From sequence record NC_111505.1: 64,000 bases of DNA; one strand, given 5' to 3'. This document shows, piece after piece, positions 5,481 through 13,683 of this stretch (positions are counted from its first letter, which is position 1; every line of letters begins with the position of its first letter). The notes beneath the pieces were generated by a model. That model did not search any database. It saw only the letters and a list, made by a program, of their open reading frames with translations, and was not told the origin of the DNA. This DNA is from a phage. A program made the position numbers and the translations under genes.

Positions 5481-5756
5481 CAATAGTTCAGGTAGGTCGT
5501 TAAGCTACCCCGCACCATTACGTGCATAGCCATACGTTTTCACGTAGGATCGGACCATCTCATATTCCTATGATAAGCAACCACAGGAATCCTCCCATTT
5601 CGACCGCACTTGCTGGTCTACTTCCTTTCGGAATGGCCTCTGAGCGTTCGCTCTTTTGAGCGCTTCGTTGCGGATTACCTTGCCATAAGGTTTAGGCTTC
5701 CCGCAGTTAAAGAGGTTATTCGACATAGATTACTCTATGAAGCCACAATGTTATTT
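5481..5756 (-). ncRNA. candidate group I self-splicing intron (276 nt, no ORF) in the DNA polymerase gene
   Basis: exon 1 ends in U (CAU His); in-frame UAA three codons into the intron; guide-like UGUGG can pair with CCAU|A giving a G.U at the splice site; UGCGGGAA (P-like) can pair with AAUCCGCA (Q-like); hairpins with GUAA and GAAA loops; last intron nt is G; splicing rebuilds YYH|DEYQLQV. Confidence 0.6.
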
Positions 5757-8700
5757 ATGGTAATAAATAATACGACGAACACCTTCATCGTACCACCCAC
5801 GCTTCACCATTTGGTGGTGCATGAGTATCCCAACTAAGTCACACAACGATGCACCACCATTTTGTTGGTATGCATTAAGTAAAGAGTGTTTAGATCGAGT
5901 CCAGATGGCATGACCATCAAAAGAGTAGATAAACTTCTTACCTGTTGCTTCCCAGAATTTCTCCAGATCCTCTTTGCGCCCCTTAAGACCAGGGTTGGCA
6001 TCCCAAAGCGCATCGATTACCTTTTGCCCTAACTCTGGGGAGATATCCAGCATGTCTGCAACTTTATCTTTTTGTGCCCCGTACATAACACCGTACGTGA
6101 CAGGCTTACCATCGTTACGGGAAATCTCCTTGCCTGCTACAGAAGAGTAAGCTTTGGCGTTATTACAGTTACCGCACACTGCCACTTTACCATTCCTTCT
6201 CACAATGATTGCTCCAGAAGGGACGGTAACGCAATAAACCAAAGAACCACTCACCTCGACAGACTCTTTAGATAGTGTCAGCAACCCTGCTCTCTGTTTG
6301 CTACCAATCGTGATTCTGTGCTGTACGGAACGACCTTTTTTGTGAATCGCCACCGTATTATTCCGTAAACCACACTGAGTAGCCAGCGCAGACACAACCT
6401 CTACAGATTTCTTCCTGCACTCGGCCTGAGAGTAGTAGGCAACTTTTCCACCTTCGGAAGATACCCACCCGTCCCAGTTAGATAAAGAAGCTATAAACAG
6501 GTTTTTAGATTCTTTATCAAGGTCCATCAGGTTGTAGGTGAAATCCTTATTGCTGTCCAAAAACTCAAATACCCAGGACGGAACGTGGAATTGGAACCTT
6601 CTCGCCAGTAAGCCCCCTTTTGTGGTTTTCCCGCCCTGCTCTACATAACTAAGGCTTAGAGCAGAAAAAGTATCTAAAAGCGTTGCAACTTTTCTGCCCT
6701 TCCCGACCTGAATCCTGCACACGATGCTGCCGTCCTTATTTGTATGCAAGTGTCCATCATCGTGAATAGCAATAAGCAAATTAATCTGGGCAGGAGATAA
6801 GGTTGTATTCCCATAAAACTCTGCCGCATGGATAAACCTTCTTCCTGAATTAGACCCTTTACCTGCTTTCAGGTCTTTTGCCAAATCTTCAAACAATTTA
6901 TTGCTTCTGTGATCCACGGTCAGCATCCTGTGTTGATCTGTAACCATAAAATCCACACCGCTGTTGTGGAAATGATACATATCCCCACAATAACCACGCT
7001 TAACGTAATTTAATGGTGTAACAAGGTTCATCGACGAGGTGTTGTGATCGTACTGGAACACTTGTGTTCCCGGATCAAGATCTTCAAACCTCACCCACCC
7101 TTTCTCCGTGAGAATTTGTGTATCTCCTGAATAACAGTGTGCATCGCCGTTACTTACAACATCATAATACAAGCCGTTGTCGAACTCAAAGGCACCCCAA
7201 GCCCCGATAAGCTGCTCTAAGTTGGACCCGTCAATACCGATCTCAAAGTATCCTGGAGGAACGCCCCACAGACTACGCATCTCTTTACCCATAACCACTT
7301 TAGGAGATGGTTTAGGCATGTTTGCACAAATACTGTGTTTCTGTCTGGAAGTGTTTGTCAATCCAGAACTTTTAGCAGGAAGCTTGTGGTCAATCTTCAG
7401 ACGTGGATGATTAAGAAGACCAGTATCAACCTTATCCTCCTTGATTGGATCAAGTACCGATCTACGGTTTCGCAAGGATAACCACAAGACGATATCTTTA
7501 GCCATCTCTCCGTTCAACTTTTCAAGATTCGGACATAGGTGTCCAAACGTATCTTTCAGTTGCGGAGAAGTAATAAGCGCTCTGGCTTTTCTACGTATCT
7601 TCCCAAACACTTCCTTTTTAATCCTTTCTGAGTTAGGGAAGCTTCGGAACTTGTGCACGGTTGTCTGAAACTTAGCATCAGTTTTGTTCCAGAAGTTGAT
7701 AATTAGGTCACAATACTCTGACTCTAAAAGCTCGTCCATATATGCATATACTCGTGCATCAACATCAGCATCAGGCAGAGCTTTCTTCTTGCTGTCCTTG
7801 GTTACATCTTTAGTTCTCCACATTGTTGGGAGCCAACCAGCGCTGATCAAATATCGCTTAATATCGTCCTGGTTGCTGATCTTCATAGGTATCTTGCAGT
7901 CAGGCATCCGCTTCTGCTGCAGATCACTTATTGCCTGATCCATTAGTTCTTTAGGTAAAGGATGTGGTGTCGAGGTACCTTTAATATACCCCCTTAAGAA
8001 ATCAGCCATCTTATCGGGGTCTTTGCAGCCCATCTCTTCACACCATTTTATCCCCATTTTGCTGACATCTCCTGTGGAGGTAAAGGCTCGCTTAGGTGGG
8101 GCTTTGAATTCTAAAGCACTCATGTCCACAGGATAGCCAAGCTTGTCTTTTAACCATTTCCAACCGTTATTAGAGATTGTCCCATCTTGGTTAAACGGCT
8201 TTTCAGGGAACTTAGGCCGCTGAGACATTGATAGCTCTTTTAGAGGAAGTTGTGGTTCAACACGATCAGCGATCTCTTTCATCCACGCATCGCAGCGGTC
8301 ACGTAAAGCAATAGCCCCATCTATGTCGAAATACACACCCTGTCGAGCCTGCAGCTCCATCAGGAAATGCTGCAGCATGCCTCGGCGTAATGCATTCTTC
8401 CAGGTGATCTTCTTGAAGCCTTTCGGCTTCTCTTTGGCAGGATCGTACATAAAGTTCTGCATGTCAGATTTGCCGTAGAATACACCTTTTGATTCTGCTA
8501 CCAACTCCTTCCAGAGCAACTCCTGGATGATAACGTCCTCGAACACACGATCCACATACTTCCACAGCGGAAGCTCACGCCAGTCATCGATTTGAACTTT
8601 CTGGTTACCAAGGGCATAGCCCCATGCCATAAGGCCATGAGGCCCAACAGGTTGCATTTTCTTGGTAACTGGATTGAATACTGCGTCCGGACAACCTTTT

Positions 8701-9149
8701 GGCAAAGGGCGGTCAGGCCACAAGATTCGACTCATCGCCAACGTATCAAATAGATTAACTTGGTGGTCGTTGATAGTCCCCATGCATTTAGGATCACGGA
8801 ACATATCAAAATGAACACCGGATAATCTTTCCATCAGCATAAAGTCATAGCTGTAGCAGTTATGACAGTTCAAAGCCGTAGGTGACCAGTCTGAATTGCC
8901 TGTAAGCCAGCCTTCCAACTCTGAAAAATCTGCTATGCGAGCCTCAAAATCTTTATAAAGAGTTTTCTTTGCCAGAATAAAGTTCTTAGCCTTTTCTACA
9001 TCCTCTTCAGAGTAGTGTGTGCGGTCATTTAGAGGAAGGAACAGCATAAAACGGTTCTTATTCAGCTCTTTAAACAAACCGCAGTGATAATAAAGATCTG
9101 GATCTTCCAAAAGCCCGGAGGCCTCCAAGTCGAACGACCACATGCTCAT
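5757..9149 (-). CDS. DNA polymerase, family A (T7-like), exon 1 with embedded intein
   Basis: N-terminal exonuclease motif SFDLEASGL...HCG (T7 gp5-like); motif A IDGSNLEQLIGA; motif B RNDGKPVTYGVMYG; AAGGAG 8 nt upstream of ATG 9149; ORF stops 2 codons after the His of motif C. Confidence 0.85.
6168..7136 (-). mobile_element. intein (323 aa) with LAGLIDADG-type homing endonuclease domain, inside DNA polymerase
   Basis: inserted after GDAH between motifs A and B; block A CYSGDTQIL; block B TDQH; LAGLIDADG-like LLIAIHDDGH and FIASLSNWDGW; ends ...VAVCGN followed by Cys+1 (penultimate Gly, not His); flanking extein aligns with T7 NGDIHT. Confidence 0.75.
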
Positions 9150-9207: not shown

Positions 9208-11286
9208 TTAAAAAGGTGTTTCATCATCCTCAAAACCAGGGACCTGGTCAGAGGATGGATCATCGTACTGGAGGTCTTCCTGCGTGTCAACAGGCTTAAC
9301 AGTAGGAGTTACAACCTTATCAGCCACAACCTTGCCCATAGGTGTTTCTACAACTGCATGCTCCTGATCCTCAAACATAGCCTGAGGTCTCCAAACAACC
9401 TCCCCACCTTCTCCGTCTGTAAACATTTGCATTTCTTTGTCCCAGTACCAATTACTGGCATCATGGAACTTACCTGTGTGCGGGTCCATAACCAAAGTGT
9501 CAGCAATACCTAGAGTTTTTGCTGGACGGTTTTTAAGACCTACCAGACGGACACGTCCACGAGAACGATCCACCATTTCTTCGGCCTCGACACCTATGAC
9601 TACCCAACTCAACTGTTCAAGCCCCGCCGATCCTCGCAAATTCTCTTTTCGCACAGGATACCAGAAAGGTAACGGGTTACCATCCTTGTCCTTAGGAGGC
9701 ACAATCTCTGTACGTTTGAGGTGAGCGATCACCAAGATAAACACGTTAAACTGCTTACAAAACGCAGCCAGCTGAGTCATAGCCATGTCCAGTTCTTTTC
9801 GCTCATCCTTAACATTAAGCCCTGAAATTACCATGGACAGGTGATCCAGCACAATATAACGGCAATGGTACAGGCAAACCATTTGCTTAAGCTTGGTAAT
9901 CAACTCATCCACCGGAATAGACCCGAAATGTTTGAACACTTTGATTTTTCCAGCTTTTGCCCATGATTGGTGAATCTCTGCGTGTTCTTGATCAGTTAAA
10001 AACTGGCTAGGATCTTCAACAAACTCTTTAACATCAAACCCTAACTGGTTTGCATACAAGGAGTTAATTGCTTCCTCTGGGTCCTCCTCAAGATGGATCA
10101 TACATAGACGATCATCCTCTTCATAGTCATCAGCCTTCGGGCATGTCGGGTCCATTAGGTATCTTGCAATACAGTGTTCCAGTTTTTTAGCTACGGTTGT
10201 TTTACCACCACCTGATGGACCTGTAAGCATTACTAGTGTCCCTTTGTGCAAGCCTTTTAGCATTTTTTGCAGTTTTGGGAACTCTGCGCTGATATCTACC
10301 CCGTTGGAAGTCTTTTTCCGCAAAGACTCGATAGAGAAGTCTTCTAAATCCGACACCGCATCAGGCACATATTTAACAGGATGCCGGAACATGTTGACAA
10401 TATCTTCCAGCTTTTTAGCCTTCAGCATGTCTCGGATATCTTTTACACCGTCAGGGTCATTTACTTCACCAGGGTATTCTACGTGGTAAACGTTATCAGC
10501 CATCAAAAATGCTGCGATATTGTGCGTGGCCTCAACACCTTTAATGACGTGTTTTTGCTTCTCTACCTCGTTAGCTGCATCGTTATCCATTGCCAGCACA
10601 ACTGTTCCATAGCTACGGATAAACTTCTCATTGTTTGCAAAAGTATCTACTGCGTTTGCACATCCACAGTTAATTCCAACAAAAGGTAGGCAGGGTTTTC
10701 CTGCCAGATCACCACCGTTTATAACTGCGTCGATCCCGTCCTGGACCTCTTTAGCCCACTGCTTCACCTTTGCCGGGGCTTTAGCGTTGGTGAGAATCCC
10801 TTTTACCTGTATCTGATATGCAGCCTGCCATGCTGCAATAACATCGCCTTCCCCCTCACAAACGTTAATTTGCTTACGGTTGTTGGAAGATGCACACAGC
10901 TTTTGCCCAAACATCTGGGAGTTGGCCTTTACTATGCCAACAACGGAGAAATGGCCCCTTTGCTCTTTAGGAATCGTCCAGTCACGCTTTTTGAAACCGG
11001 ACAGATTTCCGTAGCGGTCGTAATATGGGAAATATGTTGCAGTGACTGTCACACCGTCTTCTTGGGATAATGCTGATCGCACACCAAAATATTGTGCAGC
11101 CATCAGACCGATATTTTGTTGTGGGACAGGGACAATTTTAGTATTTTCTAAAACAGTCTCTACAGTTTCAACTTCTTTTTCATCACGATAGTCTCGTTTC
11201 ACACTTCCCCCACTTTTATACTTAGTTGCTTTCGGGTTTGGCTCACCGAAACGGTTGTATGCAGATGCCATGAATTTACTTCCCAT
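9208..11286 (-). CDS. DNA primase-helicase (TOPRIM primase + DnaB/gp4-like helicase)
   Basis: TOPRIM VCEGEGD and LAMDNDAAN; Walker A GPSGGGKTT; Walker B-like IVLDHLSM; 692 aa. Confidence 0.7.
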   Translation of the reverse strand: MGSKFMASAYNRFGEPNPKATKYKSGGSVKRDYRDEKEVETVETVLENTKIVPVPQQNIGLMAAQYFGVRSALSQEDGVTVTATYFPYYDRYGNLSGFKKRDWTIPKEQRGHFSVVGIVKANSQMFGQKLCASSNNRKQINVCEGEGDVIAAWQAAYQIQVKGILTNAKAPAKVKQWAKEVQDGIDAVINGGDLAGKPCLPFVGINCGCANAVDTFANNEKFIRSYGTVVLAMDNDAANEVEKQKHVIKGVEATHNIAAFLMADNVYHVEYPGEVNDPDGVKDIRDMLKAKKLEDIVNMFRHPVKYVPDAVSDLEDFSIESLRKKTSNGVDISAEFPKLQKMLKGLHKGTLVMLTGPSGGGKTTVAKKLEHCIARYLMDPTCPKADDYEEDDRLCMIHLEEDPEEAINSLYANQLGFDVKEFVEDPSQFLTDQEHAEIHQSWAKAGKIKVFKHFGSIPVDELITKLKQMVCLYHCRYIVLDHLSMVISGLNVKDERKELDMAMTQLAAFCKQFNVFILVIAHLKRTEIVPPKDKDGNPLPFWYPVRKENLRGSAGLEQLSWVVIGVEAEEMVDRSRGRVRLVGLKNRPAKTLGIADTLVMDPHTGKFHDASNWYWDKEMQMFTDGEGGEVVWRPQAMFEDQEHAVVETPMGKVVADKVVTPTVKPVDTQEDLQYDDPSSDQVPGFEDDETPF

Positions 11287-12040
11287 TAATTCTGCTCCTT
11301 ACTACAGGCTCGTTTGCTAAGAATACAGCTTTTGCCCAGCCACGTGGTGTGAGGCTTCGAATCATCTTCGTTCTTGCACTCTTTCCACCCAGCTTGGTGT
11401 GTTGCATGGAATACCCGCTAACCACGTCAACTATTTGCGGGACAGGTTTTGTGGCGGGAATTATAAATCCATTACCTATCCAGCCGCAAGTTATTTTTGG
11501 ATAGGCATCACGTGGGGCTATAAATTCAGGAAACCATGGGTTTACATCATCTTCTGGTAAATAACCGCCATAATCCGAAGGATGAAAACGATAATCAGGT
11601 TTACGCCACAGTGTGGACATAACCCCTACAGGGTTCTCTACATGCCACGGGCAATCATAAATCTCTCCCAACTCTTCTGCAACCCGAGCATCTTTTACAG
11701 CATTAATTTGGATCAGAGGATCCTTAGCCAGCTTTTTCTTAAAATGTGCAGCGCCTGATACCGCTAAATGCGTGCACGGAGGAAATGCAAGAATAAAGTC
11801 TGGAGCGGGGTACATGCAAAAAGTTTCCTGAGGGAACCATGGATCAATCCAATAATCCACATAGTGAATATTGGGATGATCGGTTATCACCTCTGCATAG
11901 CTACCGTGGTCAGCACCTTCTGCATTAAAGCACAGGCACAGATATCCAGCTTTTGCCCAGTCAATGACTGCACCACCAGACCCGTCAAATAGACTCCACA
12001 CAACACCTTTGTGGTGGTGTTCTTTGTAGATAAATTTCAA
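11276..12040 (-). CDS. putative DNA (cytosine-5) methyltransferase-like protein, small
   Basis: motif I LFDGSGG, motif IV FPPCTH, motif VI HVENPVG in the canonical order; no obvious target-recognition domain; start placed at TTG with AGGAG upstream (track start 12070 is a GTG inside the terminator hairpin). Confidence 0.4.
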   Translation of the reverse strand: MKFIYKEHHHKGVVWSLFDGSGGAVIDWAKAGYLCLCFNAEGADHGSYAEVITDHPNIHYVDYWIDPWFPQETFCMYPAPDFILAFPPCTHLAVSGAAHFKKKLAKDPLIQINAVKDARVAEELGEIYDCPWHVENPVGVMSTLWRKPDYRFHPSDYGGYLPEDDVNPWFPEFIAPRDAYPKITCGWIGNGFIIPATKPVPQIVDVVSGYSMQHTKLGGKSARTKMIRSLTPRGWAKAVFLANEPVVRSRINGK

Positions 12041-12057
12041 TTTGCTGTCTCCTGATG

Positions 12058-12085
12058 CAAAAAGCCCCACCCTTTCGGGCAGGGC
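12058..12085 (-). terminator. rho-independent terminator
   Basis: minus-strand GCCCTGCCC-GAAA-GGGTGGGGC + UUUUUG; near-copy of the 661..682 hairpin. Confidence 0.5.
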
Positions 12086-12091
12086 CTAGTG

Positions 12092-12574
12092 TTAAACCCG
12101 GATACCTATTGTATACTCGGTAGATACCAATGTCAAATCTAAATTTAAAATTTCTTGCATCTCATAATATGCGTCCAGGGTGAGATACATTTCTCCATCC
12201 TTTTCTACATACTTGTCAAGGTGTTTGAGGCACTTTGGATAGCTATCAAGAGCAGCCTTTAGGCACTCAAACTCTGTGCTGTTGATAAATCCTTCCATCT
12301 TGGCTACCCGTTCTGGAGTAACGATAGCGCTGTAGTGAGATTTAGCTTCCTGAATGCAATGGGTCCAAGCATCGACTTTCTCTTCGAAAAGTCCGAAGAA
12401 CTTCTTCTTGGTGAGCTTCAGATTCTTTAAGTGCTTAAGCACTCGGTTGCCGATCACAGACACATCACGAAACTTAAGGATCACTTTGTCAATATCCTCG
12501 CGGCCTATTTTCACAAAGCAAGCCTCACACATTTCAGGAGAGGCATAGCCTACCTTCCACATAAAATCTGACAT
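12092..12574 (-). CDS. hypothetical protein
   Basis: 160-aa ORF. Confidence 0.5.
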   Translation of the reverse strand: MSDFMWKVGYASPEMCEACFVKIGREDIDKVILKFRDVSVIGNRVLKHLKNLKLTKKKFFGLFEEKVDAWTHCIQEAKSHYSAIVTPERVAKMEGFINSTEFECLKAALDSYPKCLKHLDKYVEKDGEMYLTLDAYYEMQEILNLDLTLVSTEYTIGIRV

Positions 12575-12586
12575 AACACTCTCCCC

Positions 12587-12982
12587 TTATTCCTGAAAAG
12601 CAACGATATCATATGCACTTGCAGACGATCCTGGTGAAGCGTGACTCCAGTCTAGGTCATCAGAGTAGTCAGCATACTGTGCACCGCTACGTAGCTTGTA
12701 TTTTACCCACTTACCTGGTACAGGGTTTTCACCACCTTCCCATGCTTCCCAACACTCTGGCAGGCCATCCTGAGAGTAGTCGTCCACCTCACTAATAATC
12801 TTAGGGTTTGGCACCAAGATTCCTGCTGGTTCTTCCTTCTTAGCAAGTGTCCACACAATGTATGTGTCTGAACAGGAGCATGTCAATAAAGTATACCCGC
12901 TATTCAGAACTTCTGCAAGCTCTTTTTCAGCATCTTCCAATTTGGTTAAGTGGTATTGGATAATCTTCACATCCGTAATCAT
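12587..12982 (-). CDS. hypothetical protein
   Basis: 131-aa ORF. Confidence 0.5.
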   Translation of the reverse strand: MITDVKIIQYHLTKLEDAEKELAEVLNSGYTLLTCSCSDTYIVWTLAKKEEPAGILVPNPKIISEVDDYSQDGLPECWEAWEGGENPVPGKWVKYKLRSGAQYADYSDDLDWSHASPGSSASAYDIVAFQE

Positions 12983-13284
12983 TAGAATCCTCCTACTTCT
13001 TCAGCAAATGCTGCTGCTGTTGTCGCTGCATCCAGATATGATTCTAGTTCACGGGCTGCACGTTTGTAAATAGAGTGTCGCAGATCGTTCGGGAGTTGGT
13101 GAAAGTCCACCTCTTCTCCGTTGTGATAAACATGTAAATCGGTAATCTGTCTAAATCCATAATAATCAACATCAGAATCGCGGCACTCCGGATCTGGCAA
13201 CTGGACAACTGCCTGAGCTTCTACAGTGAGCATATCGTCAAGTTCGAAATCGATTTCAAAAGTGTATGGTTTGTAACGCTTCAT
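12982..13284 (-). CDS. hypothetical protein
   Basis: 100-aa ORF, 1-nt stop/start overlap with the next gene. Confidence 0.45.
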   Translation of the reverse strand: MKRYKPYTFEIDFELDDMLTVEAQAVVQLPDPECRDSDVDYYGFRQITDLHVYHNGEEVDFHQLPNDLRHSIYKRAARELESYLDAATTAAAFAEEVGGF

Positions 13285-13344
13285 CGTTTGGTGCTCTCCT
13301 CAGTTTTGTGGGGAGGAGTTCCTCCCCTTTATGCTCACATCTTA

Positions 13345-13683
13345 CTACTGAAGGTCTTCAGAGTCAAGCTCAAAAAGAATCAAACTGTGCATGTTTGCAG
13401 AGAGCTCAACACACTCCGCAACGACAAGGGTCTGATAGTAAGGTTCAGCACCCTCGATGTCTTCGTTAAAATCCACAACAAGGTAGTCACCTTTGTTAAA
13501 GGTGTATTTGTCAGATGTAAACGCAAACCCTGCCCAGTCCCCTACAGGGTCTTTATCGATCACCTTTGTTAGCAGGAGGTCTTTTTCACGAGATCTTTTA
13601 GTAAAATCGTGAATCACAACAGCCTTCTCTTCAGGATTTGGATTTCCACACACGTAGTTAACTATATTTCTCCACAAACTCAT
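13345..13683 (-). CDS. hypothetical protein
   Basis: 112-aa ORF overlapping the helicase stop by 4 nt. Confidence 0.45.
   Translation of the reverse strand: MSLWRNIVNYVCGNPNPEEKAVVIHDFTKRSREKDLLLTKVIDKDPVGDWAGFAFTSDKYTFNKGDYLVVDFNEDIEGAEPYYQTLVVAECVELSANMHSLILFELDSEDLQ

Follow-up and report, generated by a model that had tools for sequence, protein, structure and literature searches.

The stretch of DNA analyzed here (64,000 nucleotides of phage record NC_111505.1, hereafter the window) comes from a Vequintavirus, i.e., an rV5/FV3-like Escherichia coli phage. An earlier note, made from the sequence alone, had read positions 11276 to 12040 as a miniature protein resembling C5 DNA methyltransferases (MTases) and overlapping the start of a primase-helicase gene, and had offered two interpretations: a DNA-modification enzyme or a degenerate, noncatalytic relic. 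The elements of the MTase gene are listed below, with conservation assessed in 41 close relatives and in 61 diverse representatives of the family, the latter 32 to 54% identical to the query.

11276..12040, minus strand: coding sequence (CDS) of the compact C5-MTase, 254 aa plus stop, with a TTG start and a TAA stop; matches PHROG 757.
12049..12053, minus strand: Shine-Dalgarno (SD) sequence AGGAG, 8 nt before the TTG; conserved, with a ribosome binding site annotated at the same place in phage Murica.
11972..11989, minus strand: motif I, F18-D-G-S-G-G23, the predicted S-adenosylmethionine (SAM)-binding loop after strand 1; corresponds in alignments to motif I of DNMT3B and of M.HaeIII.
11774..11782, minus strand: motif IV, P87-P88-C89, with the predicted catalytic nucleophile Cys89 (codon 11776-11774); C89 is invariant in the 41 close and the 61 diverse relatives.
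11630..11638, minus strand: motif VI, E135-N136-P137, of the ENV type, whose Glu would contact the target cytosine; neither E135 nor P137 varies, while conservation of N136 is at least 90%.
11369..11473, minus strand: variable segment, residues ~190 to 224, at the position of the target-recognition domain, preceded by the motif VIII-like strand and followed by motif IX; includes the GYSMQHTKLGGKS loop.
11339..11359, minus strand: motif IX-like segment R228-S-L-T-P-R-G234, conserved in close relatives.

Judged by its match to PHROG 757, annotated as "DNA methyltransferase" (E = 9.5e-87, 291 bits; residues 10 to 261 of the 264-aa form on profile positions 3 to 226 of 247), and by the homologues present in 1503 phage records, the open reading frame (ORF) is a real gene and not a chance frame. 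Its longest form in the ORF listing runs from 11276 to 12070 on the minus strand, with a GTG start and 264 aa. The GTG at 12070 was rejected as the start because it lies inside a conserved hairpin and has no SD sequence, and all annotated orthologues start at the TTG at 12040. The same 765-nt TTG form is annotated as a CDS in phages DrSchubert and Murica which, together with the SD sequence, confirms the boundaries given in the earlier note.

In the close relatives, F18, G20, S21, and G22 of motif I are at least 90% conserved and, around motif IX, T224, K225, I227, R228, S229, L230, P232, and R233 are invariant. The 61 diverse representatives all share C89, G96, E135, and P137, with at least 90% conservation of F86, P87, T90, N136, K182, T184, R228, S229, and P232. 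The stretch corresponding to motif VIII holds the conserved residues R177, D178, Y180, K182, T184, and W187 and contains a motif VIII-like strand (residues 184 to 189). Motifs I (FDGSGG, 18 to 23), IV (PPC, 87 to 89), and VI (ENP, 135 to 137) are thus where the earlier note had placed them and in the canonical order, with motif IX also in order, and its description of the protein as miniature is accurate at 254 aa. Its remark that no target-recognition domain was evident holds only in part: there is no separate domain, but a variable segment of ~35 residues, by itself, sits at that position, and the domain is better described as reduced to a loop. This segment is also the least confident part of the structural model described below (blocks 201 to 230, predicted local distance difference test [pLDDT] of 73 to 84).

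An AlphaFold2 model built from the family alignment (mean pLDDT, 90.5; predicted template modeling score, 0.89) has the C5-MTase fold. Foldseek searches of the PDB with this model placed the methyltransferase domains of DNMT3A and DNMT3B at the top (E ~1e-6), while matches in BFVD were compact phage "DNA-cytosine methylases" of ~225 aa with template modeling (TM) scores of 0.8 to 0.9. At the sequence level, 26 of the 41 close relatives touch the DNA methylase family PF00145 at E ≤ 1, the best with E = 1.3e-6, and a phmmer search of PDB sequences returned only a 26-residue match to M.HaeIII over motif I (E = 1.2). The family is large (>3540 clusters at 90% identity; at 50% identity and E ≤ 0.001, 1009 clusters), and almost all of the members listed are 200 to 260 aa long. 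By fold and catalytic motifs, the protein belongs to the C5-methyltransferase superfamily, yet it scores under the threshold set by Pfam and has no motif X.

Two further BFVD matches, A0A6J5SE15_1 (1397 aa) and A0A6J5NPY6_2 (1126 aa) from uncultured Caudovirales, carry the compact MTase fold as a domain (TM ~0.6, 24 to 26% identity). One bears the name "Helicase/UvrB, N-terminal," and the pair suggests methyltransferase-helicase fusions.

Functional information comes from two relatives. Over 235 residues, the window protein shares 53% identity (E = 1e-85) with the Dcm of the Drexlerviridae phage KarlJaspers (Bas06), which stands in here for the 95.4%-identical phage K42, whose Dcm was the one tested. 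In that work, available as a preprint and in peer-reviewed form in Cell Reports, K42 mutants escaping the retron Ec86 (Eco1) all disrupt the 711-bp dcm gene, and expression of Dcm is toxic only with Ec86 present, Dcm being the reported Ec86 trigger. The enzyme was reported to raise 5-methylcytosine (5mC) in the multicopy single-stranded DNA (msDNA) of Ec86, as determined by liquid chromatography coupled to mass spectrometry (LC-MS), whereas a combined C82A/E128A/K175A/K176A mutant does not. C82 and E128 of the K42/KarlJaspers protein align with C89 and E135 of the window protein. The second relative, gp52 of Pantoea phage AAS23, is 52 to 54% identical to the window protein, and restriction analysis is reported to show AAS23 DNA to be Dcm methylated.

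Further evidence bears on whether the gene encodes an enzyme or a relic. Among three Vequintaviruses, the ratio of nonsynonymous to synonymous substitution rates (dN/dS) is 0.035 to 0.042, with 24 to 34 synonymous versus 4 to 5 nonsynonymous changes. Bases 11000 to 12400 of the window match 116 phage records at 90 to 99% identity, nearly all of them Escherichia Vequintavirus myoviruses of ~135 to 140 kb, and the MTase gene is kept in all 116. An adenine methyltransferase located three genes away in relatives is, in contrast, dispensable, being absent from 28 of the 116 records, this window included. What favors a degenerate, noncatalytic relic is the lack of a Pfam or NCBIfam match and the absence of motif X and of a separate recognition domain. 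However, throughout the family the catalytic Cys and Glu do not vary, and an equally short homologue of the same architecture is reported to be active. With these residues, the dN/dS of ~0.04, the retention in 116 genomes, the homology to the tested Dcm, and the AAS23 relative all pointing the other way, a relic is very unlikely. Of the two interpretations in the earlier note, it is therefore the DNA-modification enzyme that is supported. We infer, with a probability of roughly 85%, that the protein is an active, stand-alone ("orphan") SAM-dependent DNA C5-MTase of a very compact phage-borne family.

Several observations weigh against this conclusion. The window protein has no methylase match in Pfam (PF00145 included), even at E ≤ 10, and none in NCBIfam. 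Family profiles run against PDB sequences gave only nonsignificant scores for DNMT3B (E = 0.36) and DNMT2 (E = 0.63), and hhalign of the family with M.HhaI aligned motifs IV and VI correctly at a nonsignificant probability of 0.3%. Motif X (GN[AS]V) was not seen after motif IX, most family members stopping 5 to 12 residues past the motif IX helix, and the QRR (QxRxR) signature of motif VIII was not recognizable in the family alignments. K176 of the K42 Dcm is Ile in the window protein. Finally, the BASEL study found the Vequintavirinae exceptionally sensitive to six tested restriction-modification (RM) systems, from which it follows that the MTase is no broad shield and that any protection would be narrow, as would fit a site-specific methylase.

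The profile search that the earlier note had proposed as a check thus gave a divided answer, positive in PHROGs and negative in Pfam and NCBIfam, while the resemblance to C5-MTases itself is supported by PHROG 757, by the relatives that reach PF00145, and by the structure comparison. The note had also named the lack of a methylase-family match as grounds for refutation. Such a test would misfire here, the link being visible only via PHROGs, relatives, and structure; with Pfam and NCBIfam scans missing the MTase and many records calling it a "hypothetical protein," an automatic rule of this kind would wrongly discard the gene.

Two other activities were considered for the protein. It might transfer a group other than methyl, as would a CmoX-like C5-carboxymethyltransferase of cytosine, whose donor is carboxy-SAM, made in E. 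coli by CmoA. The PPC sequence would not set such an enzyme apart, since it is common in ordinary C5-MTases too. CmoX (PDB 8yf3) uses carboxy-SAM through Arg350; it is defined by SPPC plus this Arg (R350), which takes the place of the motif X Asn of M.HhaI, and it is usually accompanied by CmoA and a ligase. The window protein has FPPC instead of SPPC and no motif X segment to carry a CmoX-type Arg. The neighbors examined, replication genes plus small ORFs without an assigned function, include no methyltransferase-, CmoA-, or ligase-like gene. With 5mC as the product seen by LC-MS for the 53%-identical K42 Dcm, carboxymethyl transfer appears highly improbable. A physiological RNA substrate, for example tRNA as for Dnmt2, is likewise very unlikely: DNA methyltransferases score higher in the structure comparison, it was the DNA part of msDNA that the tested homologue modified with methyl groups, and the gene is embedded in a DNA replication module.

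As for the sequence that a DNA C5-MTase at this locus would recognize, CCWGG is the leading guess, made by analogy with relatives and put at slightly under even odds. Excluding the recognition-position loop, the protein shares 53 to 55% identity with the CCWGG-linked relatives, and the conserved GGKSxRTKxIRSLTPRG segment beside that loop is part of this similarity. Three points count against the assignment. KarlJaspers Dcm and AAS23 gp52 have an NPGW-type loop, which the GYSMQHTKLGGKS loop exceeds by four residues, and the window protein so differs here from both experimentally supported relatives; CCWGG specificity is for this reason not confidently transferable. The CCWGG assignment of K42 Dcm itself rests on msDNA site mutants and not on a mapped methylated base, and the EcoRII resistance of AAS23 and KP36 DNA could stem from host Dcm. 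An active DNA C5-MTase with a target other than CCWGG, whose short loop reads a different and possibly shorter motif, is accordingly a serious contender, if only a tentative one. Apart from the loop difference, it would agree with the finding of both loop types among otherwise similar proteins and with the nearest structural matches being DNMT3 enzymes, whose recognition element is small; on the other side, the similarity of the rest of the protein speaks against it, and literature methylome data for members with the GYSMQHTKLGGKS loop type were not found. CCWGG occurs 94 times in the window versus 87 (zero-order) or 145 (Markov) expected, with no clear avoidance signal and nothing decisive on specificity. 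The 94 sites would leave the enzyme something to protect. We consider it rather unlikely, but worth stating, that the GYSxQH-loop subgroup represents a minimal natural DNA C5-MTase (~230 to 250 aa, without motif X or a separate recognition domain) that has a target other than CCWGG and that, in Vequintaviruses, would trigger or help evade defenses of the retron type or dependent on methylation.

Among relatives, the MTase is variously named "DNA cytosine methyltransferase," "Dcm-like C5 cytosine methyltransferase," "putative site specific DNA methylase," or "DNA methyltransferase," and many near-identical records label it merely "hypothetical protein." Over stretches nearby, the nearest relative of the window is phage EPFV3-03/2025. 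In the literature, we found no work testing any Vequintavirus orthologue of the MTase and no methylome or restriction data on 5mC for rV5-like phages.

The search with bases 11000 to 12400 also returned 16 unannotated GenBank records (MG0656xx) that bear the name "Campylobacter phage" and give Campylobacter jejuni as host but are 96% identical to this E. coli Vequintavirus; these look like mislabeled records or coliphage contaminants.

The 1.3-kb N6-adenine methyltransferase gene of DrSchubert, Murica, and most Vequintaviruses is missing from the window at ~13281 to 13290, the junction of ORFs 12982-13284 and 13345-13683, and tblastn found no match to it anywhere in the window. The N6-adenine methyltransferase of phage Bas51 has been reported to trigger the retrons Asa1 and Squ1.

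The MTase is flanked by the following features.

9208..11286, minus strand: primase-helicase, 692 aa, downstream of the MTase; PHROG 239, E = 6.6e-160.
11276..11286, minus strand: 11 nt shared by the 3' end of the MTase and the start of the primase-helicase, ATGGGAAGTAA; MTase TAA at 11278-11276, primase-helicase ATG at 11286-11284.
12058..12087, minus strand: GC-rich 11-bp hairpin (12087-12062) with a U-run after it, resembling an intrinsic terminator, between an upstream 160-aa ORF and the MTase.
12108..12136, minus strand: sigma-70-like promoter match TTGACA-17-TACAAT (11/12) upstream of the hairpin, from a consensus scan only.

The gene order is MTase, primase-helicase, DNA polymerase, with the MTase heading the replication module. 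The overlap with the primase-helicase start seen by the earlier note is real and measures 11 nt. An AGGAG for the primase-helicase lies at 11299-11295, within the end of the MTase coding sequence, where Murica has an annotated ribosome binding site; the primase-helicase is probably translationally coupled to the MTase.

On the upstream side, the region from 12136 to 12058 (minus strand) presents a putative promoter ~20 nt upstream of the terminator-like hairpin, followed by the SD sequence and TTG of the MTase, so that a transcript from this promoter (12136-12108) would start with the hairpin. The hairpin (folding energy, −23.2 kcal/mol; z = −2.4) is identical in DrSchubert and Murica, the latter annotating a terminator there, and both promoter-like hexamers are likewise identical in the two phages. 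The upstream 116 nt as a whole are 99% identical, versus ~96% for the MTase coding region. The arrangement may reflect attenuation, 5' stabilization, or coincidence.

In the mechanism that we propose for the MTase, the motif I loop (F18 to G23) would bind SAM as in canonical C5-MTases, Cys89 of the PPC motif would attack C6 of a flipped-out cytosine, and Glu135 of the ENP motif would contact the base, with the methyl group then transferred to C5. The ~35-residue loop before motif IX, and not a separate domain, would read a short DNA motif. Heading the replication module and overlapping the primase-helicase start, the MTase is probably coproduced with the replication proteins and would mark newly replicated phage DNA. 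The likely benefit would be site-specific protection from 5mC-sensitive restriction enzymes, and the likely cost that the methylation is sensed by host retron defenses.

This is the sole methyltransferase kept by every phage of the genus, and its family is reported to be sensed by the retron Ec86/Eco1. With the target site known, it would be easier to foresee the restriction and retron systems that these phages, candidates for therapy, escape or trigger. The family also shows how far a C5-MTase can be trimmed, a point already implicit in the published work on the K42 enzyme.

Further along the replication module, the DNA polymerase gene is interrupted. A group I intron at 5531-5766 (minus strand) splits it into exon 1 (9149 to ~5767) and exon 2 (~5530 to 5127). 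The intron matches Rfam RF00028 over the full model length with 64.7 bits, versus a gathering score of 50 (E = 5e-16). The 118-aa ORF at 5127-5483 matches the C-terminal part of the polymerase PHROG (phrog_8888, positions 185 to 295) and the upstream ORF matches positions 49 to 185; in DrSchubert, the polymerase gene is uninterrupted. Inside the polymerase ORF at 5751-9149 there is, in addition, an in-frame insert of ~1 kb (~332 aa) relative to DrSchubert, at ~6140 to 7137 on the minus strand. It starts ...CYSGDTQILTEKGW and finishes ...VAVCGN/C, has a weak, below-threshold match to the Hint domain PF13403 (E = 0.0013), and is probably an intein whose middle part resembles a homing endonuclease. 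The intron-plus-insert region is at least 80% covered in only 6 of 131 related phage records, and some relatives have an HNH endonuclease there instead.

Compared with the canonical C5-MTases M.HhaI and M.HaeIII, the window protein is ~75 to 100 residues shorter and lacks a separate recognition domain, motif X, and a recognizable QRR motif VIII. PF00145 enzymes and the catalytic domain of DNMT3A/3B are only 12 to 18% identical to it in structural alignments, and its sequence similarity stays under the Pfam threshold. The K42/KarlJaspers Dcm is much closer: it belongs to the same length class (236 versus 254 aa) and shares the catalytic Cys and Glu as well as the motif IX segment. The window protein differs from it in a 10-residue N-terminal extension and in a recognition-position loop of the GYSMQHTK type as opposed to NPGW, and the genomic context is also different, the KarlJaspers dcm lying beside a helicase gene in a 51-kb siphovirus. 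Closest of all are the Vequintavirus orthologues, i.e., DrSchubert bas50_0075 (QXV77541.1), Murica YP_009594049.1, and the HMD-6 "DNA cytosine methyltransferase," which share 96 to 97% nucleotide and 97 to 99% protein identity with the window gene (five nonsynonymous differences in the case of DrSchubert), the same 765-nt CDS, and the same place before the primase-helicase. The gene is thus already known, as an annotated Vequintavirus orthologue of a phage family with one functionally tested member.

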